64,000 bases of DNA from contig JAGYPA010000003.1 in the NCBI GenBank assembly GCA_018399255.1, positions 58,032 through 122,031 of the forward strand, written 5' to 3'. The position numbers were made by a program, and so were the translations under genes. The DNA comes from Spirochaetales bacterium (lineage in GTDB: Bacteria; Spirochaetota; Spirochaetia; JABMQR01). This document shows positions 1 through 45,406 of the stretch, in pieces; position 1 is the stretch's first letter; every line of letters starts with the position of its first letter. Under the pieces are notes generated by a model. That model worked only from the letters and a program-made list of their open reading frames with translations, had not been told where the DNA came from and ran no database searches.

Positions 1-147
1 GCCGCGCTGCCGGCTCCGGGTATATCGAGAAAAGCAGTCGGCTCAAGCGTATGCAGAAACGGTTGTGCAGTTGTGGGATCCGTATAACGATTTGGAATAA
101 TGACGAGCCAATTTTGAATGCTTGCATGAAAAAAGGGGAGGATGAGC

Positions 148-1029: not shown

Positions 1030-1054
1030 AGATAAAGAAAAAGGAGGACTGAGA

Positions 1055-2506: not shown

Positions 2507-2535
2507 ACATCCAATCCTGAACAGGAGGAATTGTA

Positions 2536-3261
2536 ATGAAAGACAATTTTACAGAATCGAAAGAACCTGCTGCCTGTACGGTTTCTATAGGTGAAGGCAC
2601 GCTTACTGAGCCCGGCGTGCAGATCGGTTTCCGGTATCATCCGGAATGCGGAGGCACGGTCATCGGCAAAAACGGAATTCTGCGGTACGGAACCATTATA
2701 TACGGTGATGTACAGATTGGTGACTACTTTCAGAGCGGCCACTATACGGTAATTCGCGGTATGGTGGAAATTGGCGATTACTGTACGGTAAGCAACCATT
2801 CAACTCTGGAGGGGCTTATGCGACTAGGCAATGGTGTCAGAATCATGTCCCATGTCTATGTTCCTACCCGGACTGTTATAGGAAACCATGTGTTCATCGG
2901 TCCGGGGGTTGTTTTCCTCAACGACAGGTATCCCGCCCGAAGAGAGAAGCCGGAAACACCTGTGGGGGCCGTTATCGAGGATGAGGTGGTGATAGGCGGG
3001 GGAGTTGTCATTCTGCCCGGTGTGACAATCGGAACCGGAAGCTTTATCGCTGCCGGGGCTTTGGTGAATAAGGATATTCCGCCCCGCAGTCTGGTAATGG
3101 GAGTTCCCGGCAATATAATGCCGCTTCCTGCCGATCTGGACAAGCCGAACAATCTGCAGCTGATCGAGCAGCCGCTGGATCTCTGGCATCCGAAGGGGCC
3201 GGATCCCCAAAAAGCTCACTGGCCCGAGCATCTGGGAAGGCGGCCGCTGTCATCAAATTAA
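2536..3261 (+). CDS. Hexapeptide-repeat (left-handed beta-helix) acyl/acetyltransferase
   Basis: Repeated [LIV]-G-x-x-x-x hexapeptides (IGDYCTV, IGNHVFIGPGVVF, VIGGGVVILPGVTIGTGSFIAAGALV). GGAGG lies 8 nt upstream of the start. Confidence 0.7.
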   Translation: MKDNFTESKEPAACTVSIGEGTLTEPGVQIGFRYHPECGGTVIGKNGILRYGTIIYGDVQIGDYFQSGHYTVIRGMVEIGDYCTVSNHSTLEGLMRLGNGVRIMSHVYVPTRTVIGNHVFIGPGVVFLNDRYPARREKPETPVGAVIEDEVVIGGGVVILPGVTIGTGSFIAAGALVNKDIPPRSLVMGVPGNIMPLPADLDKPNNLQLIEQPLDLWHPKGPDPQKAHWPEHLGRRPLSSN

Positions 3262-3357
3262 GCACCGATGGGTTGGGGCTTTCATAATTCAAGGATTTTG
3301 AAAGATCCTCAGATACAGGTGCAGCTGTCACGACGGGTATTTTACAGGAGGGGCCAA

Positions 3358-4902
3358 ATGGCAAAAAAACCTGATATTCTCTGGCTTCTGAGCGATCAGC
3401 ACAATAAAAAGGTAACCGGATATGAGGGGGATGCGTTTGTGCAGACTCCCCATCTCGACGCACTGGCAGAGAGCTCTGTTATCTTTGACACGGCAGTGAC
3501 TCCCAATCCGCTCTGTACTCCGGCCCGTATCTGCATGCTGACGGGAAAAGAAGCCCACCACTGCTCGGCTTATACAAACCACTGGCCGGTATTCCCGGAA
3601 CATCTTACCTGGCCCGGTCATTTTGCTGATAACGGATACCGGACTTGTCTGGTGGGGAAAATGCATCTGGGTGGAAAAAACCAGCTTGCCGGTTTTCAGC
3701 ATCGGCCTTATGGTGACCTCAGGCATGGGGTAGGTCATCAGCCTGATCCACTGGCCAAGTTTCCCGGGTATGCAAATGTCCGCAGTGCGGGAATAACAGA
3801 GCTGCCGGAAACGATGCTCCAGGATTTTGTCGTTGCCCATGAATCGCTGGCTTTTATCAGAGAGCATGCGGACAGGGAACCTGATGTGCCCTGGTTTCTC
3901 TGTGCTTCCTTCACCCGGCCGCATGCACCCCTTACTGCTCCCGGCCGTTATATACGCAAGTACCGCGGAAAGCTTCCGCCGGCAGAGAAGCCGCCGCTCA
4001 GGGAGGATCAGACAAGTTACGAACCCTATGCCCGGAACTTCATTGAGAAGAGTTCTTCCCTGATAAGTCGGGAAGAAGCCCAGGCGGGGTACGAAGCCTA
4101 CTACGCCTGCGTGGATTTTCTTGACGACTGCATCGGGGATCTGCTTGAAGGTCTTAAGAAAGACGGACTTCTGGATAATACCTATATAATATATACCGCT
4201 GATCATGGGGAAATGCTTGGCCGTCATGGTATCTGGGGTAAGAAACTCTACTACGAACCATCAATGAGCGTACCCCTGCTGATATCCGGGCCCGGTATAA
4301 CCGGAGGCAAACGAGCAGCCGGTCCGGTATCAACCATCGATCTCTATCCGACTTTCTGTACACTTGCCGGACTGCCGATACCTGCGGGGCTGGACGGGGT
4401 TGATGTGAGTTCTATGCTTACAGATCCGGAAAACGCCCGTCCGCGCGATTTTGCTGCCTCGAGTTATTTCCAGTATGGAATATGGTGGGACACCGAGGAT
4501 GCGGTTAACGAACAGCTGCCGCATAAGGCGATGCGTGTGATTCGGGAAGAACGGTGGAAATATGCCGAAGTTGAACAGGGGGAAGCCCTTCTCTTTGATA
4601 TGGCAGATGATCCCGAAGAGCGCATCAATCTGGTGCAGGATCCAGCTCATCAAGATCGGGTTCAGCGGATGCGGGAAAAGCTCTATACCAATTTCAGCTG
4701 GGCTGGGGTTCATCGAAAGCTGGCAGAAGATAGGGAGCGCAGGCTGCAGGTGACCTCGGGAATGAAGCCGACTACGCCGAATCAGTACCTGCTGGCTGAC
4801 GGCAGGCTTGTTGATGCCGAGAGGGATCTCTACGATGCCCGTTGGATTGTCATACCGGAAGAACCCGAGTCGGGAGGTCATATTCCTCAGTATTTCGGTT
4901 GA
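3358..4902 (+). CDS. Sulfatase (formylglycine-dependent arylsulfatase family)
   Basis: C-T-P-A-R motif (C-x-P-x-R sulfatase signature) near the N-terminus at LCTPARICMLTG, and a downstream GKMHLGG motif. The start moves to the in-frame ATG at 3358 (MAKKPDILWLLSDQHN). Confidence 0.8.
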   Translation: MAKKPDILWLLSDQHNKKVTGYEGDAFVQTPHLDALAESSVIFDTAVTPNPLCTPARICMLTGKEAHHCSAYTNHWPVFPEHLTWPGHFADNGYRTCLVGKMHLGGKNQLAGFQHRPYGDLRHGVGHQPDPLAKFPGYANVRSAGITELPETMLQDFVVAHESLAFIREHADREPDVPWFLCASFTRPHAPLTAPGRYIRKYRGKLPPAEKPPLREDQTSYEPYARNFIEKSSSLISREEAQAGYEAYYACVDFLDDCIGDLLEGLKKDGLLDNTYIIYTADHGEMLGRHGIWGKKLYYEPSMSVPLLISGPGITGGKRAAGPVSTIDLYPTFCTLAGLPIPAGLDGVDVSSMLTDPENARPRDFAASSYFQYGIWWDTEDAVNEQLPHKAMRVIREERWKYAEVEQGEALLFDMADDPEERINLVQDPAHQDRVQRMREKLYTNFSWAGVHRKLAEDRERRLQVTSGMKPTTPNQYLLADGRLVDAERDLYDARWIVIPEEPESGGHIPQYFG

Positions 4903-5010
4903 TGAGGTTCTTCTGAAGGCGGCAGGAAGCAGTTAATCAATCGATAAACCTGATGCTGCGGCTATTGTAAAATGGGAAAAATCGTATATACTATAGTCAG
5001 TATATATCAA

Positions 5011-5041
5011 TATAACCGTTTGGTTATAGCGGTCTTTTTTT
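5011..5041 (+). terminator. Weak candidate intrinsic terminator after the sulfatase operon
   Basis: AT-rich 7-bp stem (tataacc/ggttata) followed by a T7 run. Confidence 0.3.
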
Positions 5042-5176
5042 ACACCTTTTCGTTTTATACCATTCTGTGAGCAACTGTTATGTACATAACGGAGTCATGA
5101 CTGCTGAACGTACCATGCTTCAATAGTGAAAGGTACTGTACAAAATGCGCAAACAATCAAGGAGATTATTTTTTTG

Positions 5177-5205
5177 TTGACAAACGGGAAAATGAAAAGT
5201 ACAAT
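5177..5205 (+). promoter_or_regulatory. Sigma70-like promoter (TTGACA-17-TACAAT) for the ABC transporter operon
   Basis: TTGACA at 5177-5182 and TACAAT at 5200-5205 with 17-nt spacing, about 170 nt upstream of the substrate-binding protein start. Confidence 0.45.
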
Positions 5206-5374
5206 TTTAATTGTTATAATATTAGTACAATAAATAATTGATCGGTTATACAGATAGTGATTGGTTATACAGGGATTAAAGTTAAAATGAGGAAGATTTT
5301 CTTTCTCTGAAAAAGTTTCGGTATATTGCTTGCTGTCGGAAGACAGCAGTAAGAAAAAACTATGGAGGTTTGTA

Positions 5375-6727
5375 ATGAAACGTAGTGCAAAGATTCTTAT
5401 GGCTGCAGCAGTTTTCTTTCTCGCGGCTGGTATGCTATTTGCCGCCGGGCAGCAGGAAGCAGAAGCAGGTGGAGATGTAACCATCTCTTTTTGGCACTTT
5501 CCCCAAGTAATTGGTGTGAAGGGGTTTGAGGATCAGTCAAAAGAGTATGGCCAGTTCTGGGCGTATCTTGCAGAAGAGTTCAGCGCCATGGACAACGGTA
5601 TTAAAGTTGAAACCGAGCTGATCCCCTGGACCGGCGGTTTTGAACGGTTCAATGTTGCTATTGCCGGTGGTAATCCACCCACAATCGGAGCTGATTATCT
5701 GGGCAGAACTCCCATTTACTATGCCTCAGGGATGGCAACTCCGGCAAACGAAGTAGTTCCTTCCCTGGTGGACGATACCGATGCCTCAATTGTGGATATT
5801 TATACACTCAGTGACGGCAATGTACACGCGCTTCCGGCCTTCAGCTGGAGTCAGGGACAGATGGTTGTGAATGTCGGCCTGCTCAAGAAGTACGGCTGGA
5901 CAGGTCCGGTTCTCAATGGCCCCGGGCAGCCGTTTTCCTTTGATGAAATGACGGCATTCCTGGAAAAAGCCAAAAAAATTGTCCCCAGCAATATATTTCC
6001 CACCGTATGGAGCTGCGGAGATGAGCAGGGCGACTATCTGTGGATGAATATTTTCACTGCCTATGGATACAAACCGTTTGATGCCGACGGCAATGTAGCC
6101 AGCGATGTCAGCGGTATGATAAAAGGTTACAACCTGATTAAAGAGCTTCATGAGAAAGGTCTTACAAACAGGGGTGTTGCCAGCATGAAGGGCAATGAAG
6201 GCAACGATGTATTTTCCAGCGGGCTCAGTGTTCTGAACCGGTCAGTCTCCAAATCTATGATAACAGAAATTGAAACCCGTATAAACGAGGGAACGCTGGA
6301 CTTCGAGTTTGACCTCATGGTCGTTCCTTATCCTACTCCCGATGGCGATTACGGGTATTCAGCTTTAGGGCCGACCGCCTTTATCTACCTGACAAAGGAT
6401 CAGAAAGAGCTTGATGCTGCTGCTGCATGGACAGAGTTTGTTATGCAGGAAAAGTACTGGCCGAACCTTGTTGCCGGAACCGGACAGCTGCTGCTCCAGA
6501 AAAGGTATGCTGATTTGGATCTTTACACCGGCGATCCGCTCATGGAAGTTACCGGGCTGATTAAAGCCAATACAAGTGCTATGGATTTTGGTCTGACCGA
6601 CCCGAACTACCAGAAACGCCGTGAAGCAATGGCTGAAGCTGGACAGAAGATTTTTACCGGAATGGCATCTGTAGAAGATGCAGTGAAGGCTCTTCATGAC
6701 CAGTTTAAAGCGCTTAACAAGGAATAG
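5375..6727 (+). CDS. ABC transporter substrate-binding protein (carbohydrate-type, family 1 SBP)
   Basis: Signal peptide MKRSAKILMAAAVFFLAAGMLFAAG. GGAGG lies upstream of the ATG at 5375. It is followed by two MalF/MalG-type permeases. Confidence 0.75.
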   Translation: MKRSAKILMAAAVFFLAAGMLFAAGQQEAEAGGDVTISFWHFPQVIGVKGFEDQSKEYGQFWAYLAEEFSAMDNGIKVETELIPWTGGFERFNVAIAGGNPPTIGADYLGRTPIYYASGMATPANEVVPSLVDDTDASIVDIYTLSDGNVHALPAFSWSQGQMVVNVGLLKKYGWTGPVLNGPGQPFSFDEMTAFLEKAKKIVPSNIFPTVWSCGDEQGDYLWMNIFTAYGYKPFDADGNVASDVSGMIKGYNLIKELHEKGLTNRGVASMKGNEGNDVFSSGLSVLNRSVSKSMITEIETRINEGTLDFEFDLMVVPYPTPDGDYGYSALGPTAFIYLTKDQKELDAAAAWTEFVMQEKYWPNLVAGTGQLLLQKRYADLDLYTGDPLMEVTGLIKANTSAMDFGLTDPNYQKRREAMAEAGQKIFTGMASVEDAVKALHDQFKALNKE

Positions 6728-6842
6728 CAGAGTAACGGAATAAGAACGAAAACTTTCTAGTGTTTGAGTTATTGAGGGCCCCTTGAAATAGATGTACTGT
6801 TGAAAGGGGCCGTTTTTAAAACTTTTTCTTCAGGAGGGGAAA

Positions 6843-7736
6843 TTGGCTAAACAGGCAAAAAGTTTATGGTACAGGATAAAAAGCGAGAGATCCGCCTATT
6901 TCTTTATCCTGCCCTCTATAATAATGTTTCTTCTACTTGTGCTGGTTCCCTTGATTTTGACGTTTATCTACAGTTTTCAGGATCGTGCTCTTGTACTCAA
7001 AGGGTGGGTTGGATTTCAAAACTACATTAATCTCTTCAAGGATCCCTATTTTCATCGAGCTTTGAAGAACACGTTTACCTTTGTGATAATACTGGTCCCC
7101 GTAGTGGTAATAGTTACGTTTCTGGTAGCTCTTCAGGTCTCGCCGCTCAGGCAGCAGTACCGGGTCTTTTTCCGGGCGGCTTTCTATCTGCCGGTGGTAA
7201 CCAGCGGGGTGGTAAACAGTATGGTGTGGCTCTGGCTTCTGAATACTGACTACGGTCTGCTTAACTTTATTGTCACATCCCTGGGGATGGAGCCGGTCAT
7301 GTGGCTGGCCTCGAGCAATACGCTCTATTATCTGATATTTGTGGTATTCACATTCAATTTCGGCACGCCGTTTATAATTTATGTTGCCGCAATGGGCAAT
7401 ATTCCTACGGTTCTTCTGGAGGTTGCCCGGATTGACGGGGCAAAAAAGCGGACCATAACCTGGAAGATTGTTTTTCCTCTGCTGAAGCCGGTGACATTTT
7501 TTCTTTTTGTTACCCAGACAATTTTTGTGTTCATGGTCTTTGTCGTAATCCAGCTTCTGACCGACGGAGGACCGGCTCGCACAACAGAAACCATTATTTA
7601 TATGCTCTATAAGACAGCATTTCGTTTTCTGGAATTTGGCCGAGCCTCAGCCATGGGTGTAATTCTGCTTTTTATAATACTGAGTATTTCAATCCTGCAG
7701 AAAGTTCTTGTGGGAAAAGATGACACCACCTATTGA
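6843..7736 (+). CDS. Carbohydrate ABC transporter permease (MalF/UgpA-like)
   Basis: Multi-TM protein with the EAA-type loop region (VARIDGAKKRTITWKIVFPLLKP). Confidence 0.8.
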   Translation: MAKQAKSLWYRIKSERSAYFFILPSIIMFLLLVLVPLILTFIYSFQDRALVLKGWVGFQNYINLFKDPYFHRALKNTFTFVIILVPVVVIVTFLVALQVSPLRQQYRVFFRAAFYLPVVTSGVVNSMVWLWLLNTDYGLLNFIVTSLGMEPVMWLASSNTLYYLIFVVFTFNFGTPFIIYVAAMGNIPTVLLEVARIDGAKKRTITWKIVFPLLKPVTFFLFVTQTIFVFMVFVVIQLLTDGGPARTTETIIYMLYKTAFRFLEFGRASAMGVILLFIILSISILQKVLVGKDDTTY

Positions 7737-7748
7737 TGGAGTGAGACG

Positions 7749-8618
7749 ATGAAACGATTTATGATAGAGTCCCGCGAGTTTGCCTATGGAAATCGTCAGG
7801 AACAGGTAAAGTATTATTTCATTATTTTCTTGACGTTTCTACTCTCCTTTATCTTTATTTTTCCCTTCTACTGGTTGTTTAAGGGGGCCTTTCAGCCGCC
7901 CTATATGGCGACGCAGATGCCGCCCGCCTTTGCACCGGTAAATCTGACGTTTAACAACTTTTTTCGGCTTTTTTCCCGATTCCCCGCTTTTCGCTGGTTT
8001 ATCAACAGCGTAATTGTTTCCGGCTGCGCTACGGCTTTTACGCTTGTATTCGGATCTCTGGCCGGCTATGCTTTTGCAAAGCGGAAATTTCCGGGGAAAG
8101 AGGTTCTTTTCTGGATGCTGCTGGCTACCATGATGCTTCCAAGACAAGTGACGCTGATTCCGCTCTACATAATCATGAACAACTATGGATTATACAACAC
8201 CTATCCGGGGATGTTTCTTCCTCAGATAGCCTGGCCGTTCGGCCTGTTTCTCATGCGGCAGTTCATGACCTCAATTCCCGATGAGCTGATTCAGTCCGCA
8301 AAAGTTGACGGAGCTAACGAGCTGACGATTTTTCTGCGGATAATTGTTCCCCTCAGTATACCGGCTTTTGGAACCGTCGGGATTCTCTATTTTGTTCGCG
8401 TCTGGAACGATTATCTCTGGCAGCTGGTAATAAGTAAGGATCTCGTTATGAATACCCTGCCGGTAGGGGTAGCTAAAATTTCACAAGGGGAGTTTGCGGT
8501 GGATTACGGCCTGCTGATGTCCGGAGCGGCTGTCAGTGCGATTCCCATGATTGTTATATTTCTCTTTTTCCAGAAGTATTTTGTGACAGGGCTTACCGTA
8601 GGCAGCGTCAAAGGCTAG
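7749..8618 (+). CDS. Carbohydrate ABC transporter permease (MalG/UgpE-like)
   Basis: Multi-TM protein with the EAA motif region (SAKVDGANELTIFLRIIVPLSIPA). Confidence 0.8.
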   Translation: MKRFMIESREFAYGNRQEQVKYYFIIFLTFLLSFIFIFPFYWLFKGAFQPPYMATQMPPAFAPVNLTFNNFFRLFSRFPAFRWFINSVIVSGCATAFTLVFGSLAGYAFAKRKFPGKEVLFWMLLATMMLPRQVTLIPLYIIMNNYGLYNTYPGMFLPQIAWPFGLFLMRQFMTSIPDELIQSAKVDGANELTIFLRIIVPLSIPAFGTVGILYFVRVWNDYLWQLVISKDLVMNTLPVGVAKISQGEFAVDYGLLMSGAAVSAIPMIVIFLFFQKYFVTGLTVGSVKG

Positions 8619-8664: not shown

Positions 8665-9981
8665 ATGGATACCAGTAAAGGACAGAATCTCTATCAACGA
8701 GCTAAAGAACTGATTCCCGGCGGAACGCAGCTGCTGAGCAAGCGGCCGGAAATGTTTGCCCCCGGCCAGTGGCCTCCCTATTATGCATCTGCTTCGGGGT
8801 GCCGGGTAGTCGACTTGGACGGTAACCGGTTTACCGATATGTCATCGATGGGAATCGGTTCCTGTCTGCTGGGTTATGCCGACCCGGTGGTGAACAAGGC
8901 GGTTATTCAGGCCGTTCAGGATGGGACAATGAGCACGCTCAATAGTCCTCAGGAGGTGGAGCTGGCCGAACTGCTGGTGGAGCTTCATCCGTGGGCTGAT
9001 ATGGTGCGGTATGCCCGCAGCGGCGGTGAAATCATGGCCATTGCTGTAAGAATTGCCAGGGCAGCATCGGGACGGGATCGGATTGCTTTTTGCGGATATC
9101 ATGGCTGGAGTGACTGGTATCTGGCTGCAAACTTATCCGAAGGCGACAGCCTGGACGGACAGCTGCTGCCGGGGCTGGCCCCTGTTGGAGTGCCTAAAGC
9201 ACTGGGCGGTACCATTTTTCCTTTTCACTACAATGTGATCGAGGAGCTGGAAGAGATTATAGCTCAATACGGCAACTCAGTCGGGGTTATTGTCATGGAG
9301 CCTTTCCGGTATCAGGGGCCGCAGGATGATTTTCTGCTTAAGGTCAAGGAGATAGCCCGGAAAAATGGATCAGTGCTGATTTTTGATGAGATTACTTCCG
9401 GGTGGAGGCATCATCTGGGCGGGGTCCATATGAAGCTCGGAATTGAGCCGGACATGGCGGTTTTTGCGAAAGCAGTAAGTAACGGGGTTCCTATGGCAGC
9501 CGTGATCGGAAAAAGGGCTGTTATGGACAGTGCCCAGAACAGCTTTATCAGCAGCACCTACTGGACTGAACGGATCGGCCCAGCTGCCGCTCTGGCCGCT
9601 ATTAAAGAGTATCGGAGAAGGGATGTGCCGAAGATAGTGGGCGAGACCGGTTCCGCTGTCCATCGTATCTGGAAATCCGCCGCTGAGAAAGCCGGTCTTG
9701 CACTGGCTGTAGAGGGACCTCCCGCTTTGAGCCATTTCAGTTTTGCCTGTAATAATGCGGCCGCACTGGGAACGCTTCTTACGCAGGAGCTGCTGAAGCA
9801 GGGGATTCTCGGCAATTCCGCCTTCTATGCAAGTGCCGGCCATGATGAAAAGGCTTTGCAGGACTATGAACTGGCAGTCAATACCGTGTTTCCAAAACTG
9901 AAGCGGGCCCTCGATGAAGATCGGGTTGAGGCTTCTCTCGAAGGACCGGTTGCTCACAAAGGATTTACTCGACTGACCTGA
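8665..9981 (+). CDS. Class III aminotransferase (glutamate-1-semialdehyde aminomutase-like, PLP-dependent)
   Basis: GSAM-like N-terminus (SKGQNLYQRAKELIPGGTQLLSKRP) and the fold-type I pattern (DEITSGWR). Confidence 0.7.
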   Translation: MDTSKGQNLYQRAKELIPGGTQLLSKRPEMFAPGQWPPYYASASGCRVVDLDGNRFTDMSSMGIGSCLLGYADPVVNKAVIQAVQDGTMSTLNSPQEVELAELLVELHPWADMVRYARSGGEIMAIAVRIARAASGRDRIAFCGYHGWSDWYLAANLSEGDSLDGQLLPGLAPVGVPKALGGTIFPFHYNVIEELEEIIAQYGNSVGVIVMEPFRYQGPQDDFLLKVKEIARKNGSVLIFDEITSGWRHHLGGVHMKLGIEPDMAVFAKAVSNGVPMAAVIGKRAVMDSAQNSFISSTYWTERIGPAAALAAIKEYRRRDVPKIVGETGSAVHRIWKSAAEKAGLALAVEGPPALSHFSFACNNAAALGTLLTQELLKQGILGNSAFYASAGHDEKALQDYELAVNTVFPKLKRALDEDRVEASLEGPVAHKGFTRLT

Positions 9982-10081
9982 TCGGGCAGCACTCTGCATT
10001 GTTTCAGCTGCCAGCTTCGATGCCGCCAACTTGCCGCTGCCGCCAGCTTTTTAACTGTAGCCAGCTTCCGCCAGCTTCCTG

Positions 10082-10921
10082 CTACCAGCTTCTTGGGTAG
10101 ATGGGGAACGTCTGGGGCGGCAGTTCGGTATCCCGTACGTAGCGGATCAGGTTGACATACTCTTGTACGATGGCAGAAAACACCGCTTCGCCTGTTGCTT
10201 TCGATGCTGGAGAAGGATCGCCGTAGACGCCGGTCTCGCTTATCTGAAGTCCCCAGGTGGACCAGCTTATTTTTCCTGATCCGTTTATAAAATCACCTGC
10301 TACCCATTCATTGCAGTGGACAACCGTATCCCGTCCATCCATGCCTGAGAGATCAACCGGATACCCGAAATGAAGCATAAGCGAAGTTTCATACTCACCG
10401 GCATGACTTGCTCCGCCAATTGCGCTTTTTCGGATGCTTTTAAATGCTGATGCACCGAGAGCATGCGGCATGGATACCACGACAGCAGTTCCTGTGCGGT
10501 CAAAGACTTCCCGGGCGGCAATTTTTGCGACATCTCCATGGGGCCCGTGGGTCGAGACGATAATGATTCTGGAAAATCCCATCTCGACAGCAGACGTGCA
10601 GATATCGGCAATGTAACCGGCAGTGATTTCCCAACGGACCCGGAAGGAGGGCCAGTTTTGGAGACTCTTCGGGTTATATCCGTAAGGAACAGGGGGCAGC
10701 ACCAGTACCTGAGGGTCATTGTTACATTCCCTGGCTGCCGCCGCTGCTGCTCGTTCCGCGATGAAGGTATCGCAGCCAACGGGAAGGTGCGGGCCGTGCT
10801 GCTCGGTCTGACCAAAAGGCAACAGCAGAATTGCTCCTGAGGCGGCAGCCCGGGCAATTTCATTGCGATTGCAGTTTGCATAGTAGATGCTGTCTGCAGT
10901 ACTATCAGTATTCGTTGGCAT
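10082..10921 (-). CDS. Creatininase-family amidohydrolase
   Basis: LLLPFGQTEQHGPHLPVGCD and IIIVSTHGPHGD creatininase-family motifs. The start is at MPTNTD with GGAGG upstream. Confidence 0.7.
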   Translation of the reverse strand: MPTNTDSTADSIYYANCNRNEIARAAASGAILLLPFGQTEQHGPHLPVGCDTFIAERAAAAAARECNNDPQVLVLPPVPYGYNPKSLQNWPSFRVRWEITAGYIADICTSAVEMGFSRIIIVSTHGPHGDVAKIAAREVFDRTGTAVVVSMPHALGASAFKSIRKSAIGGASHAGEYETSLMLHFGYPVDLSGMDGRDTVVHCNEWVAGDFINGSGKISWSTWGLQISETGVYGDPSPASKATGEAVFSAIVQEYVNLIRYVRDTELPPQTFPIYPRSW

Positions 10922-10983
10922 AGAGAGACCTCCTGAATAAAATTCCTGAATAAAGTGCAAATTTTGCTTTACACTCTCCCTGC

Positions 10984-11007
10984 ATATGATATAATGTTAT
11001 ATCATAT
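10984..11007. promoter_or_regulatory. Perfect 11-bp inverted repeat (ATATGATATAA-tg-TTATATCATAT) in the divergent promoter region
   Basis: Exact palindrome between the creatininase gene (-) and the NagB-like copy 1 (+). Confidence 0.4.
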
Positions 11008-11071
11008 TATAAGATAAAAATACAGCCTTTTTTCGGCTGGAGCCTGAAATTCATGGAGGGAGATACATACT

Positions 11072-12030
11072 ATGAATGGTTTTGACTTTTCACCGGCGCC
11101 CTGGATTCCTTTTCGCGACAAGGCGGTTCTGGATCGGGTACGAAAGCTTTCGGGGGAAGCGCTGACGCAGCATCCTAACAAGAACTTCCGGATTCAGATC
11201 AGCAAAAATCCCGGGCTTTTTTCTTTGCCCATCTTTTCAGCAAGATCCAGGAATCCGACCGGGAGAACAAGCCGTTTGTCGCCATCCTCGGCAATCCCGC
11301 CCCGGGAACCTACGAGCCCCTGGCAGACCTGATAAACTACGCGGGAGTAAACTGCCGCAACTTCTACCCTTTACCATGGACGAATGGGCCGATGAGAACG
11401 GAAACATAGCTCCGACAACCTACAAGGCGGGTTTTCCTACTCGTTTCTAAAATACCTGATTAACCGGATCCGGCCGGAGCTCCGGCCGCCGGAGAAGAAC
11501 GTCTTCTATCCCACAAACGAGAACATACAGGACTACTCGAAGCTGATAGCGAGAAGGGGAACGGCGGGGCCGATACCCTCTATTCCGGTCCTGGGTGGGC
11601 CGGTCATATTGCTTTATCGATCCGTGCCCGAGCTGATTCCCGATTACCGGGAAGGCGGGGAGTACCTGATCAAGGATCTGGACGATCCCTACTTTCAGCA
11701 GCTCGGCGCAGGTGCTGACGATCCATCCGCTGACAATTGTGCAGAATTCGCTGCACGGTGTTTTCGGACAGAGCGGGATCTTGCGCAGGTGCCGCCGAAA
11801 GCGGCGACCATCGGCCCGCTGGATGTGCTCAATGCGAAGGAACGGATCGAGACTCACTGGATAACGACAGGAGGCCAGTTCAGCATGGCGCCGGATGACC
11901 AGCCGGCTGATAACCCACGGGCCGGTAACTCCCTACATGCCGGGATCGATTCTGCAGCTGCTCGATACCACTGTGCTTATCAGTGAAAGCATTGCAGAAC
12001 CGATAGAGTGCATGGAGACCGTCGGCTACT
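11072..12030 (+). pseudogene. NagB-like (glucosamine-6-P deaminase / sugar-phosphate isomerase family) pseudogene, copy 1
   Basis: The N-terminus MNGFDFSPAPWIPFRDKAVLDRVRKL is a homolog of the intact paralog at 20436-21371. The reading frame breaks several times, with fragments in three frames (11072-11332, 11609-11986, and others). Confidence 0.7.
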
Positions 12031-12074
12031 GAGAAGTATGTATTGAACAGTATTAAACGAGGAGAGATGCTCTA

Positions 12075-13037
12075 TGAATGGTTTTGACTTTTCACCGGCG
12101 CCCTGGATTCCTTTTCGCGATAAGGCAGTTCTGGATCGGGTGCGGAAGCTTTCGGGGAAGCACTGACGCAGCACCCCAACAAGAACTTCCGGATTCAGAT
12201 CAGCAAAAACCCCGGCCTCTTTAAATTTGCCCACCTTTTCAGCAAGATCCAGGAATCCGACCGGGAGAACAAGCCGTTTGTCGCCATCCTCGGCAATCCC
12301 GCCCCGGGAACCTACGAGCCCCTGGCAGACCTGATTAACTACGCGGGAGTCAACTGCCGGAACTTCTATCCTTTTACCATGGACGAATGGGCCGATGAGA
12401 ACGGAACATAGCTCCGACAACCTACAAGGCGGGTTTTTCCTACTCTTTTCTCAAATACCTGATTAACCGGATCCGGCCTGAGCTCCGGCCTCCGGAGAAG
12501 AACGTCTTCTACCCCACAAACGAGAATATACAAGACTACTCGAAGCTGATTGCGGAAAAGGGAAACGGCGGGGCCGATACCCTCTATTCCGGTCCTGGGT
12601 GGGCTGGTCATATCGCCTTTATTGATCCGTGTCCCGAGCTGATTCCCGATTACCGGGAAGGCGGGGAGTACCTGATCAAGGATCTGGACGATCCCTTCTT
12701 TCAGCAGCCGGCGCAGGTGCTGACGATCCATCCGCTGACGATTGTGCAGAATTCGCTGCACGGAGTTTTCGGACAGAGCGGGGATCTGGCGCAGGTGCCG
12801 AAAGCGGCGACTATCGGCCCGCTGGATGTGCTCAATGCGAAGGAACGGATCGAGACTCACGGGATAACGACAGGAGGCCAGTTCAGCAGCTGGCAGCGGA
12901 TGACCAGCCGGCTGATAACCCACGGGCCGGTAACTCCCTACATGCCGGGATCGATTCTGCAGCTGCTCGATACCACTGTGCTTATCAGCGAAAGCATTGC
13001 AGAACCGATAGAGTGCATGGAGACCGTCGGCTACTGA
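12075..13037 (+). pseudogene. NagB-like pseudogene, copy 2 (tandem duplicate of copy 1)
   Basis: Near-identical N-terminus. A frameshift follows the SGE codons (ggggaagcactgacg versus gggggaagcgctgacg in copy 1). The C-terminal segment 12717-13037 is in frame with the paralog (TLAQNSLHGVFGQSGDLAQVP). Confidence 0.7.
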
Positions 13038-13090
13038 CCGTCGGCTGCTGAAAACTATATTTTTTGAATAGAAAGAAATGAGAAGAGGGT

Positions 13091-14161
13091 ATGACTATGA
13101 ACAGCAGAGAGCGCGTTCTTGCCGCCGCCGAACGAAGAAAGACTGACAAGGTTCCCACATCTTTGCGCTGTACGCCGGAAGTGCTGCAGGCTCTGATTTC
13201 CCGGCTGGGAGTAACTACCAAGCAGGAAGTCTACGATGCACTGGACATCGATCTGCGATGGATTTATCTCCCCTTTATCGGACCTGAAGAGCGCTCTGCA
13301 GCAGTTATGGGCAGCGAGGGGGTCGACTTCTGGGGCTGCCGCAATACGAAAATGGGAAATAAGTTCAATACCTACTACGAGATTACCGGGCATCCGCTTG
13401 CTGAAGCGGAAACCGTTGAGGATGTGGAGAACTACGATTGGCCGAGCCTGGATTGGTGGGATTATGACGCAATACCGAAAATTATCGAGGCCGAGCTGCA
13501 GAAGGACAGGCGGGCAATCATGTTCTTTGCCGGTGGAGCCTTTGAAACCCCCTGGTATATTCGCGGTTTTGAGCAGTTTCTTATGGATCTGTATCTTAAT
13601 CCGGACATTGTTACTGCCATCTGCAGCAAAGTTGAAGAGTACTATCGGCTTCGGGCCCTTCGGGTTCTGGAGGCAGCCGACGGAATGATAGATATTGTGG
13701 GTTCTGGCGGGGACCTCGGCGGGGAGACGGCTCTGCTGCTTGATCCGAACAAATGGCGGGAACTGATCAAGCCCTACACAGCCAGTCTGATCCAGACCTT
13801 CAAGCAGATGGGACTGAAGACCTTTTACCATTCCGATGGCGCCATAACCTCAGTAATCGAGGATTTTATTGAAATCGGCCTCGACATTCTCGATCCGATT
13901 CAAGTGGGGGCGGCTGGTATGACTCCGGAAGAACTGTCACCGAAATTTGGAAGCAGGCTGACGTTTCACGGGGCAATTGATGAAGTGCACCTGCTGCCGC
14001 ATGCCGCCCCGGAAGAAGTGTATCGGGAAACCCGGCGAGTTATATCCATTCTTGGACAGAACCATGGATATATTGTCTCTCCAACCCATCAGCTGCAGGG
14101 AGATACATCAGTTGATAATGTACTGGCAATTTATCAGGCGGTAAACGACTTTCGCTGGTAG
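13091..14161 (+). CDS. Uroporphyrinogen decarboxylase (URO-D) family protein, MtaA/MtbA/CmuA-like methyltransferase family
   Basis: URO-D-family N-terminus (RERVLAAAERRKTDKVP) and 356 aa length. Confidence 0.6.
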   Translation: MTMNSRERVLAAAERRKTDKVPTSLRCTPEVLQALISRLGVTTKQEVYDALDIDLRWIYLPFIGPEERSAAVMGSEGVDFWGCRNTKMGNKFNTYYEITGHPLAEAETVEDVENYDWPSLDWWDYDAIPKIIEAELQKDRRAIMFFAGGAFETPWYIRGFEQFLMDLYLNPDIVTAICSKVEEYYRLRALRVLEAADGMIDIVGSGGDLGGETALLLDPNKWRELIKPYTASLIQTFKQMGLKTFYHSDGAITSVIEDFIEIGLDILDPIQVGAAGMTPEELSPKFGSRLTFHGAIDEVHLLPHAAPEEVYRETRRVISILGQNHGYIVSPTHQLQGDTSVDNVLAIYQAVNDFRW

Positions 14162-15351
14162 ACGGTTTTTCCATCAATAATAGTCATATGTACATTGATA
14201 TCTTCATCAAAAACTGCAAGATCAGCGTCCAGGCCAGCCCGGATTGACCCCTTGTGATGTTCCAAAGCAAGGAATTTTGCAGGATTATACGTTGCTGCAG
14301 TTACGGCTGCCGGGAGTGATATCCCGGTATGCCGCATGAAATTACGGATCGCATCATTCATGGACATGAGGGAACCGGCCAGGCTTCCATTTTCAAGCCG
14401 GACCACATCCTCTCCTTCTCTCAGGACAATTTTCAGACCGTCTTTCATGGTATACCTTCCAGGAGGGCTCCCTGCGGCATCACGGGAATCTGAAATAAGG
14501 ATTATTTTTTCAGCGCCTTTACAGCGAAGGAGAATGGTAAGCAGGACCGGCGGTACGTGGATACCGTTTTTGTCGGCAATAACTTCTGCGTACAGCTCAT
14601 CACAAACCAGAAGCTCTTCTTCTATTCCCCAGGCCTTAACTCCCCCCTCGTATGGAACCGGATCGGCAAAACAGTCAAATATATGATCAATATGGGATAT
14701 ACCCAGATTGAGGGCCCGCTCCAACCGCGGAGGAGATGCGCGGCAGTACCCGAGAGCAACGTGAACATCATGTTTCCGCAGCGTGCGAACCATATTTTCA
14801 TATCCTGAAATCTCTGATGATACGGTCATGATTTTTAGATTGCCTTCAGCGGCAGAAAGTATCCGGCCGACATTTTCAGCGGTGGGTATAATTGCATGCT
14901 CCTCACTCTGGGCACCACGGTCGGGATTTATGAACGGCCCCTCCGAATTGATGCCGACAACCTGCGCCCCATGATCCGCTTTCTGTTCCCGCATCCAGCG
15001 ACTGATGAGACGGCAGCCGTTAATGAGAGATTCCAGGTCCATATTCCAGAAGGTGGGAAGAAAGGCTGTAGTTCCATGTCTGGCGAGGTAGCCAGCCATC
15101 TGATCGTACGGTCCGAAGGCTGCATCGATGCCGTTTGCACCGTGGGTGTGAATGTCAATGAATCCGGGAGAGATGTACATTCGCTGCACATCGATCACGT
15201 TATAAAAATCTGAAGTTTCAGGATGCTGCAGATAGTCTTCTTGAGCTGCAATTTTTTCTATCTTACCCTCCCTGATATACAGTACCTTGTCATGAAGTAC
15301 GGTATGAGGAGTCAAAATTAATCCATTGATAAGAATGATGTTTTTATTCAT
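14134..15351 (-). CDS. NagA-like amidohydrolase (N-acetylglucosamine-6-phosphate deacetylase family)
   Basis: GFIDIHTHGANG metal-binding motif and amidohydrolase fold. The start moves to MNKNIILINGLIL. Confidence 0.7.
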   Translation of the reverse strand: MNKNIILINGLILTPHTVLHDKVLYIREGKIEKIAAQEDYLQHPETSDFYNVIDVQRMYISPGFIDIHTHGANGIDAAFGPYDQMAGYLARHGTTAFLPTFWNMDLESLINGCRLISRWMREQKADHGAQVVGINSEGPFINPDRGAQSEEHAIIPTAENVGRILSAAEGNLKIMTVSSEISGYENMVRTLRKHDVHVALGYCRASPPRLERALNLGISHIDHIFDCFADPVPYEGGVKAWGIEEELLVCDELYAEVIADKNGIHVPPVLLTILLRCKGAEKIILISDSRDAAGSPPGRYTMKDGLKIVLREGEDVVRLENGSLAGSLMSMNDAIRNFMRHTGISLPAAVTAATYNPAKFLALEHHKGSIRAGLDADLAVFDEDINVHMTIIDGKTVYQRKSFTA

Positions 15352-15430
15352 ATGCTTTTTAAAAATGTATACATAAATAATATAACAAAGTATACTATAA
15401 AACAATTCTTATGTAAACTAAAGATGAGAA

Positions 15431-16873: not shown

Positions 16874-18283
16874 ATGGAGAAAAAAAGAATATCCGACAGC
16901 CAGGTGGATCAGGTCCGGGAAGGAACCGAGTATCTTCTGGAGAAAGTGGGCTTTACAGTTCAGCATGATGGGATCCTGAAAATAGCGAAAAATGCGGGTG
17001 CTGCCGTTGACGAAAGCAATTACCGGATACGATTACCCCGGAAGTTCCTGCGGGAACTGCTCGCTCAGGCTCCGAAGCAGTATGTCATAGCCGGTCTCGA
17101 CGGCCGTGAGCATGTCCGGGGAGGAACAAAGCGCGGGTTCTCTGCTATTGTAACCGATCCCTGGGTAATTGATTACAATACCGGGCAGCCCCGGAGACCG
17201 AACCTGGAAGATGTGCGCAAGCATACCATTATCGGACAGAAGCTCGAGCGGGTGGTGCAGATGAGCAGAATGGATTTTCCGGTTACCGATACAGATGATG
17301 CATCCTCAAGTCTTCGTGCTCTTGAAACTCACTTGCTTCATCAGAACAAGCACATCATGTTCATGCCGGCTTCCCTCGAAAGCTATCACGATTTCAAGAC
17401 CATTGCCCGGATTCTTGCCGGCGGACGGGATCCGGGGAAGAGCCATATTCTGAGCGTTGCAGCAGCCGTTGTAAGCCCTTTTGTTGTCGGAAACTGGAAT
17501 GCGGAAATGCTCATTGATGCCTGTGAAAGCGGCTTTCTGATCAATACCACGATCTGTCCTATGGCCGGCACAACGGCACCGTACAGTAAAGCGGCTGTTC
17601 TTTTGCAAGGCAATGCGGAGAACATTTTTATGACAGCCTTGACACAGATGATCAAACCCGGCACACCGATTGCCTACGGGTTTGGAGCGTCTGTTACCGA
17701 TATGCGGGCAGGGCATGACAGGTACTATATGCTCGATACTGCTCTCTGGACCGATGCGATCTGGCGTATGGCTGCTTCCTATAAGCTTCCTACCTCAGCA
17801 GCGTGCGGGGGAGGGATGACGTTTCGTTATGATCCCCAGAATGGAGCGGAAGGAATGGCCTTTATGCAGGCAGCTTGCGCAACCGGTGCTGACCTGCTTT
17901 CCGGGATCGGTTCTTACTATAACGCCGTCGGTATGTCAGCAGAGATGATGCTTATGCAGAATGCGTGGTTTGAAGCAGTTGAGCATCTGAACAGAGGAAT
18001 TGAGTTTGACAGTTTCAGTCAGGCTCTGGAAAGTCTCGAGGCTGCAGGACCTGGCGGAAATTTCCTCACCGATGATCTTACCATAGAAAACCTGCGGAGC
18101 AGCGAGTTTTTTAACCATGACCTTTTTGATTTTTCGGGCGGAAATTATCAGGGTACGTCGATGCTGCAGAGAGCTCACGAAAAAATAGACGAAATGACGG
18201 AGGGGTTCGAGTCTCCGCTTCCCGGATCGGTGCAGGAAGAGCTGCGAAGGCATTTTCATCACCTCTATCAGAGTTTGAACTGA
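16874..18283 (+). CDS. MttB-superfamily methyltransferase (non-pyrrolysine member of the trimethylamine methyltransferase family, MtgB-like)
   Basis: N-terminal pattern EGTEYLLEKVGFTVQHDGILKIAKNAGAAVDESNYRIRLPRKFLRELLAQAPKQYVIAGLDG matches the MttB-family N-terminus. It is about 470 aa with no internal amber codon. GAGGAGG lies upstream. Confidence 0.6.
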   Translation: MEKKRISDSQVDQVREGTEYLLEKVGFTVQHDGILKIAKNAGAAVDESNYRIRLPRKFLRELLAQAPKQYVIAGLDGREHVRGGTKRGFSAIVTDPWVIDYNTGQPRRPNLEDVRKHTIIGQKLERVVQMSRMDFPVTDTDDASSSLRALETHLLHQNKHIMFMPASLESYHDFKTIARILAGGRDPGKSHILSVAAAVVSPFVVGNWNAEMLIDACESGFLINTTICPMAGTTAPYSKAAVLLQGNAENIFMTALTQMIKPGTPIAYGFGASVTDMRAGHDRYYMLDTALWTDAIWRMAASYKLPTSAACGGGMTFRYDPQNGAEGMAFMQAACATGADLLSGIGSYYNAVGMSAEMMLMQNAWFEAVEHLNRGIEFDSFSQALESLEAAGPGGNFLTDDLTIENLRSSEFFNHDLFDFSGGNYQGTSMLQRAHEKIDEMTEGFESPLPGSVQEELRRHFHHLYQSLN

Positions 18284-20435: not shown

Positions 20436-21371
20436 ATGAATGAATTTACCTTTAAACCCTCTCAATGGGTTCCGTTCAAGGATAGGGAAGTCATTGAGAG
20501 GGTCAGAAAAATCAGGCGCGAAGATATCGATAAGCATAACAATCCTGATTTCCGCATCAGGGTGCTCCCCCGGGAGAAAATATCTCATATCTTTGTAACC
20601 GATGTTTTTTCACGGATAAAACGTTCAGATGATCACGATGAGCCGGTAGTGCTTCTTTTCCCCAATCCCAATCCCGACTACTGGAAGGTTGCGCACCTGA
20701 TAAACACGCTGCAGGTCAGCTGCAGGAATGTCTGGGCTTTTGCGCTGGATGAATACGCAGACGAAGAGGGCAATATTGCCCCTGCCGAATGGAAATTCGG
20801 GTTCATGCGGGCTATGAATGAGAATTTTTACAACGCCATCGATGTGCACCTCCGTCCGCCGCGGGAGCAGGTTATCGGGCCGACCAACGAAAACTACAGG
20901 GACTACAGTAAGATGATTGCCGATCTGGGGGGAGCTGATGCCTGCTACACGGGCCCCGGCTGGACCGGCCACCTGGCTTTTGTCGAGCCGGACGCACCCG
21001 AGTTTAAAGCCGAAAGTCTGGAAGAATGGATGGGTATGGGAGCCCGGATAGTCACCTTGAGTCCGTTTACCCTCGCCCAGAATTCACTTTACGGAGGATT
21101 CGGCATGAGCGGGGATTTGAGTGCCGTTCCACCCAAAGGCTTTACGATAGGTCCGCGGGATGTTGTCGAGGCGAAATACCGGATGGATATGAGCGCCATA
21201 ACCGTTCATGGAACTGCCACCAGCTGGCAGCGTCTCATGGCCCGACTGGTTCTGCACGGACCGGTAACCCCGCTGCTGCCGACATCCATCCACCAGCTCT
21301 TGAGAACAGACAGCTATATATCGGAAGAAAATGCGATGAATATCGAGCCTGATTGGGACAAGGGGTATTAA
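20436..21371 (+). CDS. NagB-like glucosamine-6-phosphate deaminase / sugar-phosphate isomerase family protein (intact paralog of the pseudogenes)
   Basis: ALDEYADEEG and GPGWTGHLAFVEPD (compare the GIGxxGHIAFNEP motif of NagB/Pgl). GGAG ribosome-binding site. Confidence 0.6.
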   Translation: MNEFTFKPSQWVPFKDREVIERVRKIRREDIDKHNNPDFRIRVLPREKISHIFVTDVFSRIKRSDDHDEPVVLLFPNPNPDYWKVAHLINTLQVSCRNVWAFALDEYADEEGNIAPAEWKFGFMRAMNENFYNAIDVHLRPPREQVIGPTNENYRDYSKMIADLGGADACYTGPGWTGHLAFVEPDAPEFKAESLEEWMGMGARIVTLSPFTLAQNSLYGGFGMSGDLSAVPPKGFTIGPRDVVEAKYRMDMSAITVHGTATSWQRLMARLVLHGPVTPLLPTSIHQLLRTDSYISEENAMNIEPDWDKGY

Positions 21372-21372
21372 C

Positions 21373-22479
21373 ATGACGCCGAGGGAGAGAGTTGAAGCAG
21401 TCTATGCCGGTGAAGTGCCGGACCAGGTCCCCTTGCTGCTCGATCTCAGTCACTACTATAAAAGCACCTATAAAAAATTCTTCGATCTTTCCGGGTACAA
21501 AGGCGTGGACCAGGAACTGGTGGATCTGCACAAGAAAATCGGGGCCGTCTGCTATGTGGAGATGGGCCGGTTTTACGATCTGGCAGTAACCGACAGGCGT
21601 ATTGAAACGAGAGCGGAAACCCGGGACGGTGTTTTTTTTACCTATATCAGCACCCCGGAGGGCAGTCTCCATGAGGAGAGGACCTTCAGTGCAGAGAGTT
21701 ATTCCTACAACATCCGTAAGCATCTGCTGGAGAGCGTCGAAGATTTCCCGGCAGTTATCAGTCTGATGGAGCATATGGAGTGCATACCACGGTGGGAGCG
21801 GTATCATGAGTGGAACGACGCCCTTGGGGACGTGGGCTATCCCTACTGCGGTCTGCCCTACTCGGGGCTGGGGTATCTTATCTCACGCAATTTCGGGGTG
21901 GAAAAGACGATCTTTGCTGCCATGGATTATCCTGATGAGGTGCGGCTGCTTGTGGATTCAGTAAACCGTCGGAACCTGGAGATTCTCGATACCATAATCG
22001 ACGGCCCTTTTTCAACCCTTTTTATCAGCGACAACTATGACAGCAATGTGCAGACGAAAGAGCTGTTTGATACCTACTCGCGGGGATATTATACCGAGGT
22101 GGCAGATCGGCTGCATGCAAAGGGGAAGTATCTGGCAGTCCATGTGGATGGGGAGATGCGGGGAGCGCTGCGCTGGATGGATGAGTGCGGAGTGGACTGT
22201 GTCGATGCGGCTACCCCGGCGCCCATGTTCGCGCTGACTCCGAAAGCTGCCCGGGCGGAGGCGGGGAAGAATATGATCCTTTCCGGGGGTATACCGGCGA
22301 CAGTATTCGGTTCTCAGGGAACCGATGCAGAGTTTGAGGAGTCGGTGAAGGCCTGGCTGGAAACCAGGGTTGAATCTCCCCGGCTGTTTATGGCTGCAGG
22401 AGATCAGGTTCCTACCGATGCACCGCTGCACAGAATTGAGATGCTGCCAAAGCTCGTGGAAGCCTGCGGGAAATATTGA
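21373..22479 (+). CDS. URO-D family protein (second MtaA/CmuA-like paralog)
   Basis: N-terminus TPRERVEAVYAGEVPDQVPL. Translationally coupled to the upstream gene with a 1-nt gap. Confidence 0.55.
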   Translation: MTPRERVEAVYAGEVPDQVPLLLDLSHYYKSTYKKFFDLSGYKGVDQELVDLHKKIGAVCYVEMGRFYDLAVTDRRIETRAETRDGVFFTYISTPEGSLHEERTFSAESYSYNIRKHLLESVEDFPAVISLMEHMECIPRWERYHEWNDALGDVGYPYCGLPYSGLGYLISRNFGVEKTIFAAMDYPDEVRLLVDSVNRRNLEILDTIIDGPFSTLFISDNYDSNVQTKELFDTYSRGYYTEVADRLHAKGKYLAVHVDGEMRGALRWMDECGVDCVDAATPAPMFALTPKAARAEAGKNMILSGGIPATVFGSQGTDAEFEESVKAWLETRVESPRLFMAAGDQVPTDAPLHRIEMLPKLVEACGKY

Positions 22480-22501
22480 ACCGAACGGGGAAGATTCAGC
22501 T

Positions 22502-45322: not shown

Positions 45323-45406
45323 GCCTTATCAATTTTGTCCATTGCAAAATATGCCAAACGCCGTGAGAATAGTTATACTAAGGCTACTATACGGGGAGTG
45401 TCTGTT

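Follow-up and report, generated by a model that had tools for sequence, protein, structure and literature searches.

The 64,000-nucleotide stretch of Spirochaetales bacterium DNA analysed here (contig JAGYPA010000003.1 of assembly GCA_018399255.1, hereafter the window) contains two neighbouring copies of a nagB-related gene, at positions 11072-12032 (copy 1) and 12074-13037 (copy 2), whose reading frames are interrupted by 11 frameshifts. A first-pass annotation made from the sequence had read them as the outcome of a recent tandem amplification followed by decay of both copies. Our comparisons favour another explanation: the tandem pair is likely to be real and probably functional, to encode a distant NagB-superfamily enzyme, and to carry residual long-read errors in its deposited sequence. 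On this reading, the tandem locus is an ordinary, conserved pair and its double pseudogenisation is most likely an assembly artefact.

In the scenario that we propose, an anciently duplicated and probably functional tandem pair would lie inside an amino-sugar and glycan utilisation island of a saline-lake spirochaete. A Nanopore long-read contig would have bridged the 2-kb repeat, which Illumina reads alone could not assemble, and Pilon polishing would have corrected this repeat incompletely, leaving the consensus errors that appear as 11 frameshifts. The deletion of one codon and two or three odd substitutions probably have the same error origin. Copy 1 would be essentially unpolished (~1% error) and copy 2 mostly corrected (~0.3%).

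Frame-breaking lesions and selection

The two + strand copies stand head-to-tail, their period is 1002 bp and they are ~95% identical. The ~1.0-kb copies described by the first-pass annotation are real, each with its own ribosome-binding site and with MNGFDFSPAPWIPFRDKAVLDRVRKL as the shared N-terminal start; of the start positions it had given, 11072 is right, whereas the second ATG is at 12074 and not at 12075. Head-to-tail orientation, high identity and support independent of the assembly (see below) identify the locus as a tandem duplication. Once repaired, copy 1 translates into a protein of 322 amino acids that is nearly identical to two intact proteins of related strains, P0001 and P0122.

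Frames were read against the intact paralog at 20436-21371, to which both copies are homologous, and against the intact, 99%-identical ortholog. The listing of indels between the copies, which the first-pass annotation had recommended, gave 39 substitutions and 12 indel events in the global alignment of copy 1 with copy 2. As deposited, both frames are disrupted, by nine changes in copy 1 and two in copy 2, and the earlier remark that at least one lesion differs between the copies extends to all 11 frameshifts, the number of lesions common to both being zero. In copy 1, seven of the changes delete 1 bp, one inserts 1 bp and one deletes 2 bp; two of the nine are complex events with adjacent substitutions. 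Along the + strand, the alignment places them as a complex event at 11218-11223, C4>C3 near 11367, T5>T4 near 11432, GG>G near 11551, T4>T3 near 11612, a T deletion near 11627, a T insertion at 11703, G4>G3 near 11775 and a 2-bp deletion with adjacent substitutions at 11886-11891; the same copy carries the substitution G265W at 11858. Copy 2 (also + strand) shows G5>G4 at 12151-12154, A3>A2 at 12404-12405 and an in-frame GCC deletion after 12796 by which one of two family-invariant prolines is lost, as well as the substitution Y209F. Deletions account for 10 of the 11 frameshifts, and 6 of the 11 (7 with GG>G included) make a homopolymer of 3-5 bases shorter. The C run at 12170-12180, which the first-pass annotation had named as a site to check, contains no indel in the alignment.

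Frameshifts of this kind could be bypassed by programmed ribosomal frameshifting or transcriptional slippage, as the first-pass annotation had also considered, or could act as phase-variation switches, and the two copy-2 frameshifts do fall in short homopolymer runs (G4 and AA). However, programming cannot account for a 963-nt gene in which the frame changes nine times; the runs concerned are just 2-5 nt long, slippery heptamers or conserved stimulatory structures were neither looked for nor noticed, and relatives have plain intact open reading frames (ORFs) at every site. The nine copy-1 changes and the intact orthologs effectively rule this explanation out, its probability being close to nil.

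The substitutions that separate the copies carry a different signal. Between the repaired copies, 33 codon differences are synonymous and 3 non-synonymous, whereas ~77% of new substitutions are expected to be non-synonymous under neutral decay (P = 1.5e-16 for ≤4 non-synonymous among 36 under neutrality). This ratio indicates, on sequence grounds, that both copies evolved under purifying selection. Changes were polarised using two related metagenome contigs, L001 and L004. Those specific to copy 1 comprise seven isolated substitutions (six synonymous at third positions and the non-synonymous G265W), the two complex events and seven simple indels; to find 6 of 7 isolated substitutions at synonymous third positions has P = 9e-4 under neutrality. 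Those specific to copy 2 are nine third-position substitutions, Y209F, the two 1-bp deletions and the GCC deletion. In copy 1, nine frame-shifting indels stand against at most 3-4 candidate neutral substitutions. Substitutions outnumber indels several-fold in neutral decay, indels making up 10-30% of events in bacterial mutation-accumulation and pseudogene studies; with an indel share of 0.1-0.3, at least nine indels among 13 events have P = 5e-7 to 4e-3. The indel excess thus appears incompatible with ordinary neutral decay. With a ratio of non-synonymous to synonymous substitution rates (dN/dS) near zero and this excess of indels, the relaxed selection of a genuine pseudogene is not seen, and decay as the likelier reading, as proposed in the first-pass annotation, finds the codon differences and the indel excess against it. 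A lineage with a mutator phenotype due to mismatch-repair deficiency was considered as well and judged unlikely, the copy-1-specific substitutions being 3 transitions and 4 transversions and the affected runs short.

Origin of the lesions and age of the duplication

The lesions are confined to one part of the window. Over the remaining 62 kb, ~48 long ORFs cover 93% of the sequence, those that were checked having full-length domain matches, which rules out poor sequence quality throughout. Logan contigs of run SRR14300308 were found via the exact products of both flanking genes. One of them, L017, equals window positions 9490-11099 at 99.88% without gaps, its two mismatches (9494 and 9496) falling at the contig tip, where they are uninformative, and the other, L003, equals 13008-15013 at 100%. 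Each ends exactly 30 nt into sequence common to both copies, L017 in the shared 5' segment and L003 in the shared 3' segment, as would be expected of a de Bruijn graph with k = 31 that branches at the repeat. Branching at both repeat ends implies two different continuations in accurate reads and is therefore an independent confirmation of the pair. All 11 frameshifts and the codon deletion lie within 11100-13007, the stretch without short-read contig cover defined by the ends of L017 and L003. Confined, dominated by indels, biased towards deletions and flanked by clean unique sequence, they look as residual long-read errors do. Within the 64-kb window we found no other long repeat, which could have been an internal control for repeat-specific errors.

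Run SRR14300308 is part of BioProject PRJNA721826 on Lake Shunet, a saline meromictic lake (PMC8382752). In that project Nanopore reads were assembled by metaFlye and polished by Pilon with Illumina reads; quickmerge then combined this assembly with MEGAHIT contigs, binning and further polishing followed, and the bins were rebuilt in Unicycler with long-read contigs as bridges (PMC8382752). Its authors noted numerous indel errors in the long-read assemblies, breaking ORFs, and gave an N50 of 6-12 kb for Illumina-only and ~100-500 kb for hybrid assemblies; Spirochaetota genomes are among those listed (PMC8382752). The C-terminal fragment of copy 2, missing proline included, equals P0123, a 97-amino-acid gene call on an NCBI contig of 155,427 bp, a size typical of the hybrid and not of the Illumina-only assemblies. 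We infer that the window derives from the Lake Shunet hybrid assemblies. Short-read polishers leave errors in repeats, mostly of homopolymer length, according to the Polypolish report (PMC8812927). Sequencing error, which the first-pass annotation had mentioned as an alternative, is in our view the better explanation, all lesions being in the segment that the short-read contigs do not reach and the matching run coming from a Nanopore and Pilon project.

Relatives of the gene bear on the age of the pair. P0001 is an intact 322-amino-acid ortholog, 99% identical, on the Joint Genome Institute (JGI) metagenome contig L001 (JGI 3300077563), and P0122, a second intact ortholog, is on L004 (JGI 3300001335). 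Every lesion is missing from the intact relatives of matching copy type, namely L004 (5' part of copy 1), L001 (5' part of copy 2) and the proteins P0001 and P0122 (99% identity). The first and last 27 nt of L001 (1023 bp) are identical, and its left end consists of gene end, spacer, GGAGAGATGCTCT and ATG, which is the copy-1/copy-2 junction. We read L001 as a collapsed tandem-array unit of ~996 bp, and its identical ends therefore indicate that the tandem arrangement exists in a strain ~93% identical to the window. Within the 5' 540 nt, copy 1 has the allele of L004 and copy 2 that of L001 at 13 sites; further 3', the pairing is reversed at 4 sites, L004 being copy-1-like in its 5' part and copy-2-like in its 3' part. 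Because copy-specific alleles and the copy-copy junction are shared across strains, the tandem pair predates the divergence of the related strains (4-7% diverged), in which it was kept intact. The window's own copies differ at ~4% of sites. A recent duplication would leave copies closer to each other than to their orthologs and free of shared copy-specific alleles, a pattern not seen here. The recent tandem amplification of the first-pass annotation is ruled out by the copy-specific alleles common to several strains, and the inter-copy difference and the junction conserved in L001 speak against it too. The comparison of orthologous loci in related strains that it had suggested shows the gene intact there, with both copy types kept.

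It could be argued that the tandem itself is false and that the copies are not adjacent, for instance because two strain variants of a single-copy gene were stitched head to tail. L004 would then represent the true structure: it has a single intact copy between creatininase-like and URO-D-like genes, the same flanking genes as here, and the sample is a metagenome that contains related strains. This is very unlikely to be the case. The short-read contigs of the same strain require two continuations, as they branch at both repeat ends; L001 carries the junction of gene end, spacer, ribosome-binding site and gene start, and its ends repeat over 27 nt; the mosaic of L004 is what would be expected of a collapsed assembly or of unequal crossover of a tandem pair; and the spacer with its ribosome-binding site looks like a normal intergenic junction.

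A more serious objection is that both copies may be genuine, very recent and independent pseudogenes that lost selection after a long functional tandem phase, the paralogous cluster at 20436-23662 having taken over or the substrate having disappeared, so that slippage-type indels then accumulated. We consider this unlikely, and several points nevertheless support it and weigh against residual errors. The frames are broken as deposited, and the 97-amino-acid fragment is called as a gene in the NCBI record. The lesions are unshared, and several do not have the form of simple homopolymer errors: the GCC deletion, by which an invariant proline is lost in frame, both complex events, the inserted T and the T missing from GTGTCCC. 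Genuine pseudogenes, too, would be expected to have lesions peculiar to each copy and to be struck at family-invariant positions (Q276, P243/P244), and changes occur at invariant or near-invariant residues (Q276R, G265W), the complex events striking the invariant Q276. Every indel lies within 2-63 nt of a copy-specific single-nucleotide polymorphism, so most 150-nt reads should be assignable to one copy and polishing should have worked; why at least five Pilon rounds would fail is not obvious. A diverged paralog exists, and its cluster could in principle make the tandem pair dispensable. Finally, the link from the window to Lake Shunet rests on identity to two Logan contigs, and the case for the lesions as errors is circumstantial.

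Against genuine pseudogenes stand an indel to substitution ratio far off the neutral expectation, an inter-copy dN/dS near zero, the exact confinement of the lesions to the stretch unassembled by short reads, the presence of both copy types intact in close relatives and the origin of the matching data in a Nanopore-based assembly workflow. In addition, the neighbours, the putative promoter and both ribosome-binding sites are intact, untouched by any lesion. Were the frameshifts real, both copies of a long-selected pair would have been rapidly and independently inactivated by a near-deletion-only process, with the paralogous cluster 7 kb off taking over, a course of events that we find rather improbable; if true, it would show gene loss in its earliest phase, under a mutation spectrum unusually rich in indels.

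Other relatives show assembly breaks inside the gene. The closest GTDB representative for the tandem gene is a soda-lake Spirochaetaceae metagenome-assembled genome (MAG), CSSed10_345R1, with 84% protein identity; it has the gene on two contigs, L005 and L010, one of which ends inside the gene, and the metagenome contig L015 (LSQX01315501.1) starts inside it. These recurring breaks are consistent with multi-copy arrangements in several relatives. The scan of GTDB species representatives returned no relative above 84% protein identity and that of JGI metagenomes none above 86%, and looking up exact matches to the repaired proteins, to the copy-2 fragment, to P0123 and to the paralog gave none; the protein collection, too, lacks the exact repaired proteins. 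P0121 (107 amino acids, with the same starting Val as the copy-2 fragment) was considered as a second pseudogene and dismissed, being merely cut by the start of its own contig.

Protein family and gene context

A NagB-like family had been proposed for the gene in the first-pass annotation, and this assignment stands at the level of the fold. A Pfam search with the repaired copy and the paralog gave no hit, Glucosamine_iso included, and TIGR00502 (NCBIfam nagB) scored 30.3 bits for P0001 and 53.9 bits for the paralog, below the cut-off of 236.9 bits that delimits the family proper. A profile built from 21 family members, searched against the PDB, retrieved NagB at E 6.6e-8. The AlphaFold2 model has a mean predicted local distance difference test (pLDDT) score of 87.8 and a predicted template modelling (pTM) score of 0.88, and its best Foldseek matches in the PDB are NagB structures (best E 5.9e-16, target-normalised template modelling scores of 0.73-0.79). 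The top 26 Foldseek matches in the PDB belong to the NagB family, 25 being annotated as glucosamine-6-phosphate deaminase/isomerase and one being KP1_5497 (6nbg, 'hypothetical protein'); 6-phosphogluconolactonases follow. The modelled structure thus places the protein in the NagB superfamily at the level of the predicted NagB/6-phosphogluconolactonase alpha/beta fold.

The motifs agree with this placement in part. The catalytic residues of Escherichia coli NagB include Asp72 (in NMDEY) and His143 (in DGHIAFNEP); Asp141 precedes the Gly-His, and Glu148 lies in the NEP motif. In the HMMER alignments FTMDEW pairs with FNMDEY and GPGWAGHIAFIDP pairs with G.G.DGHIAFNEP, and D104, E105 and H180 are invariant across the 21 family members; the catalytic Asp and His motifs of the superfamily are thereby present. 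At the position of Asp141 the tandem copies have Ala and the paralog has Thr; at that of Glu148, the clade of the tandem copies has Asp and the paralog has Glu. Invariant motifs of the family are MDEW, GPGW.GH.AF, QNSL.G.FG.SG and SWQR, with the Asp in F.MDE[WY] and the His in G.GW.GH.AF..P. The family comprises 2,736 hits at E≤1e-3, mostly unannotated and not covered by a Pfam model, with homologs in Spirochaetota, Clostridia, Kiritimatiellae and others. Fold, motifs and context together suggest that the encoded protein is most likely an aldose-ketose isomerase/deaminase with an amino sugar or amino-sugar phosphate as its substrate, and that it would work downstream of the NagA-like deacetylase described below.

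The expression signals of the pair look ordinary. A putative sigma-70-type promoter (TTTACA, 16 nt, TG-TATAAT; 10968-10995, + strand) lies in the divergent intergenic region 5' of copy 1, with 11 of 12 hexamer positions matching the consensus and an extended -10 TG. The ribosome-binding site of copy 1, GGAGGGAG, occupies 11055-11062 (+ strand), 9 nt 5' of the ATG at 11072. That of copy 2 lies in the 41-nt inter-copy spacer (12033-12073, + strand), where the Shine-Dalgarno-like motif AGGAGAG is found at 12060-12066, and the same junction recurs in L001. A promoter-like site was seen for copy 1 only; together with the 41-nt spacer, it makes the pair look like a two-gene operon segment, and the copies are likely co-transcribed from this single putative promoter.

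All neighbouring genes are intact. To the left, a divergent creatininase-family gene (10082-10921, - strand; PF02633, E 7e-48) has its exact product on L017, and to the right, a URO-D/MtaA-like gene (13091-14161, + strand; PF01208, E 2.6e-23) has its exact product on L003. The latter is convergent with a gene at 14134-15348 (- strand) for a NagA-like N-acetylglucosamine-6-phosphate deacetylase homolog (TIGR00221, 238.1 bits for a cut-off of 225.65, with supporting Pfam hits).

The paralog at 20436-21371 (+ strand) is intact and homologous to the tandem copies and carries GPGWTGHLAFVEPD, as the first-pass annotation had noted. Because it shares only 45% protein identity with them, it is an ancient paralog and not a recent spare copy. 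It is followed by a URO-D-like gene (21373-22479) and a co-directional NagA-like gene (~22490-23662). The ORF listed for the latter, 22370-23662, opens with a TTG, which gives a 110-nt overlap with the URO-D-like gene before it; since the nagA model aligns only from residue ~45 onwards, translation probably starts at the ATG at 22490. A triad of NagB-like, URO-D(MtaA)-like and NagA-like genes is thus found twice in the window, on the 13091-15405 side and at 20436-23662, with identities of 45% for the NagB-like and 32% for the NagA-like paralogs and without significant BLASTP similarity between the URO-D-like pair. Since these paralogs are deeply diverged, the sequences suggest that the triads are two amino-sugar modules of old origin and distinct function and did not arise by segmental duplication.

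NagA-like amidohydrolases also adjoin the NagB-like gene in L005 and L010, and in contig L002 it occurs alongside aldo-keto reductase, class-III aminotransferase, Amidohydro_2, sulfatase and BNR sialidase-like genes. This context suggests an amino-sugar substrate. Positions 142-8618 of the window hold a glycan/amino-sugar uptake and degradation island with a dihydrodipicolinate synthase (DHDPS)/NanA-like lyase, a sulfatase, an ATP-binding cassette (ABC) solute-binding protein, two permeases and a class-III aminotransferase, which is partly syntenic with L002, from a related Spirochaetales MAG (aldo-keto reductase, aminotransferase III, Amidohydro_2, NagB-like).

Elsewhere in the window, 16874-18283, between a major facilitator superfamily (MFS) transporter gene and an Amidohydro_2 gene, encodes an intact 469-amino-acid MttB-family methyltransferase homolog (PF06253, E 7e-56). 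It has no in-frame stop and scores 198 bits with TIGR02369, under the cut-off of 525, and is therefore a non-pyrrolysine member of the MttB family. The 634-amino-acid ORF at 44996-46900 has FGGY sugar-kinase domains from residue 141, so its real start is probably much later, and the minus-strand ORF of 293 amino acids at 44441-45322 could be a genuine gene in the stretch thus freed.

Comparison with known systems

Taken as a data-quality warning, these results mean that this stretch of a probable hybrid Nanopore/Illumina MAG should not be counted as two pseudogenes before the reads are checked; likewise, the label of an evolutionarily dynamic island should not rest on the tandem locus until then. 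Clusters of unshared 1-bp deletions in a repeat, combined with a near-zero dN/dS, offer a simple diagnostic of unpolished long-read sequence. For function, a NagB-fold family without a Pfam model, present as a tandem pair in a spirochaete lineage and linked to NagA-like genes, is a candidate amino-sugar deaminase/isomerase.

Compared with NagB itself (TIGR00502; PDB 1dea, 4r7t, 3hn6 and 2bkv), the family shares the fold, the aligning F.MDE[YW] and G.G..GH.AF..P motifs, which are invariant in the family, and the association with NagA-like deacetylase genes, here and in relatives. The protein of the tandem genes differs in being only ~20% identical to NagB and in exceeding it by ~55 residues, being extended at the N terminus and carrying an insertion after the GH.AF motif, and the pair has no adjoining sugar kinase or phosphotransferase system (PTS) gene.

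Bacterial pseudogenes that arise by frameshift decay of redundant paralogs resemble the locus in their broken frames, unshared lesions, deletion bias and the presence of a diverged paralog nearby. The locus departs from them in that its substitutions bear no mark of relaxed selection, its indels exceed the candidate neutral substitutions, and regulatory signals and all neighbours are intact.

A further parallel is with residual Nanopore consensus errors in repeats after short-read polishing, the problem that Polypolish sets out to solve (PMC8812927). The lesions are likewise dominated by indels, biased towards deletions, enriched in homopolymers and confined to a repeat with clean unique surroundings. 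Two differences count against a full equivalence: the copies are 4% diverged, an inexact and hence partly polishable repeat, and some of the lesions here are not homopolymer errors.

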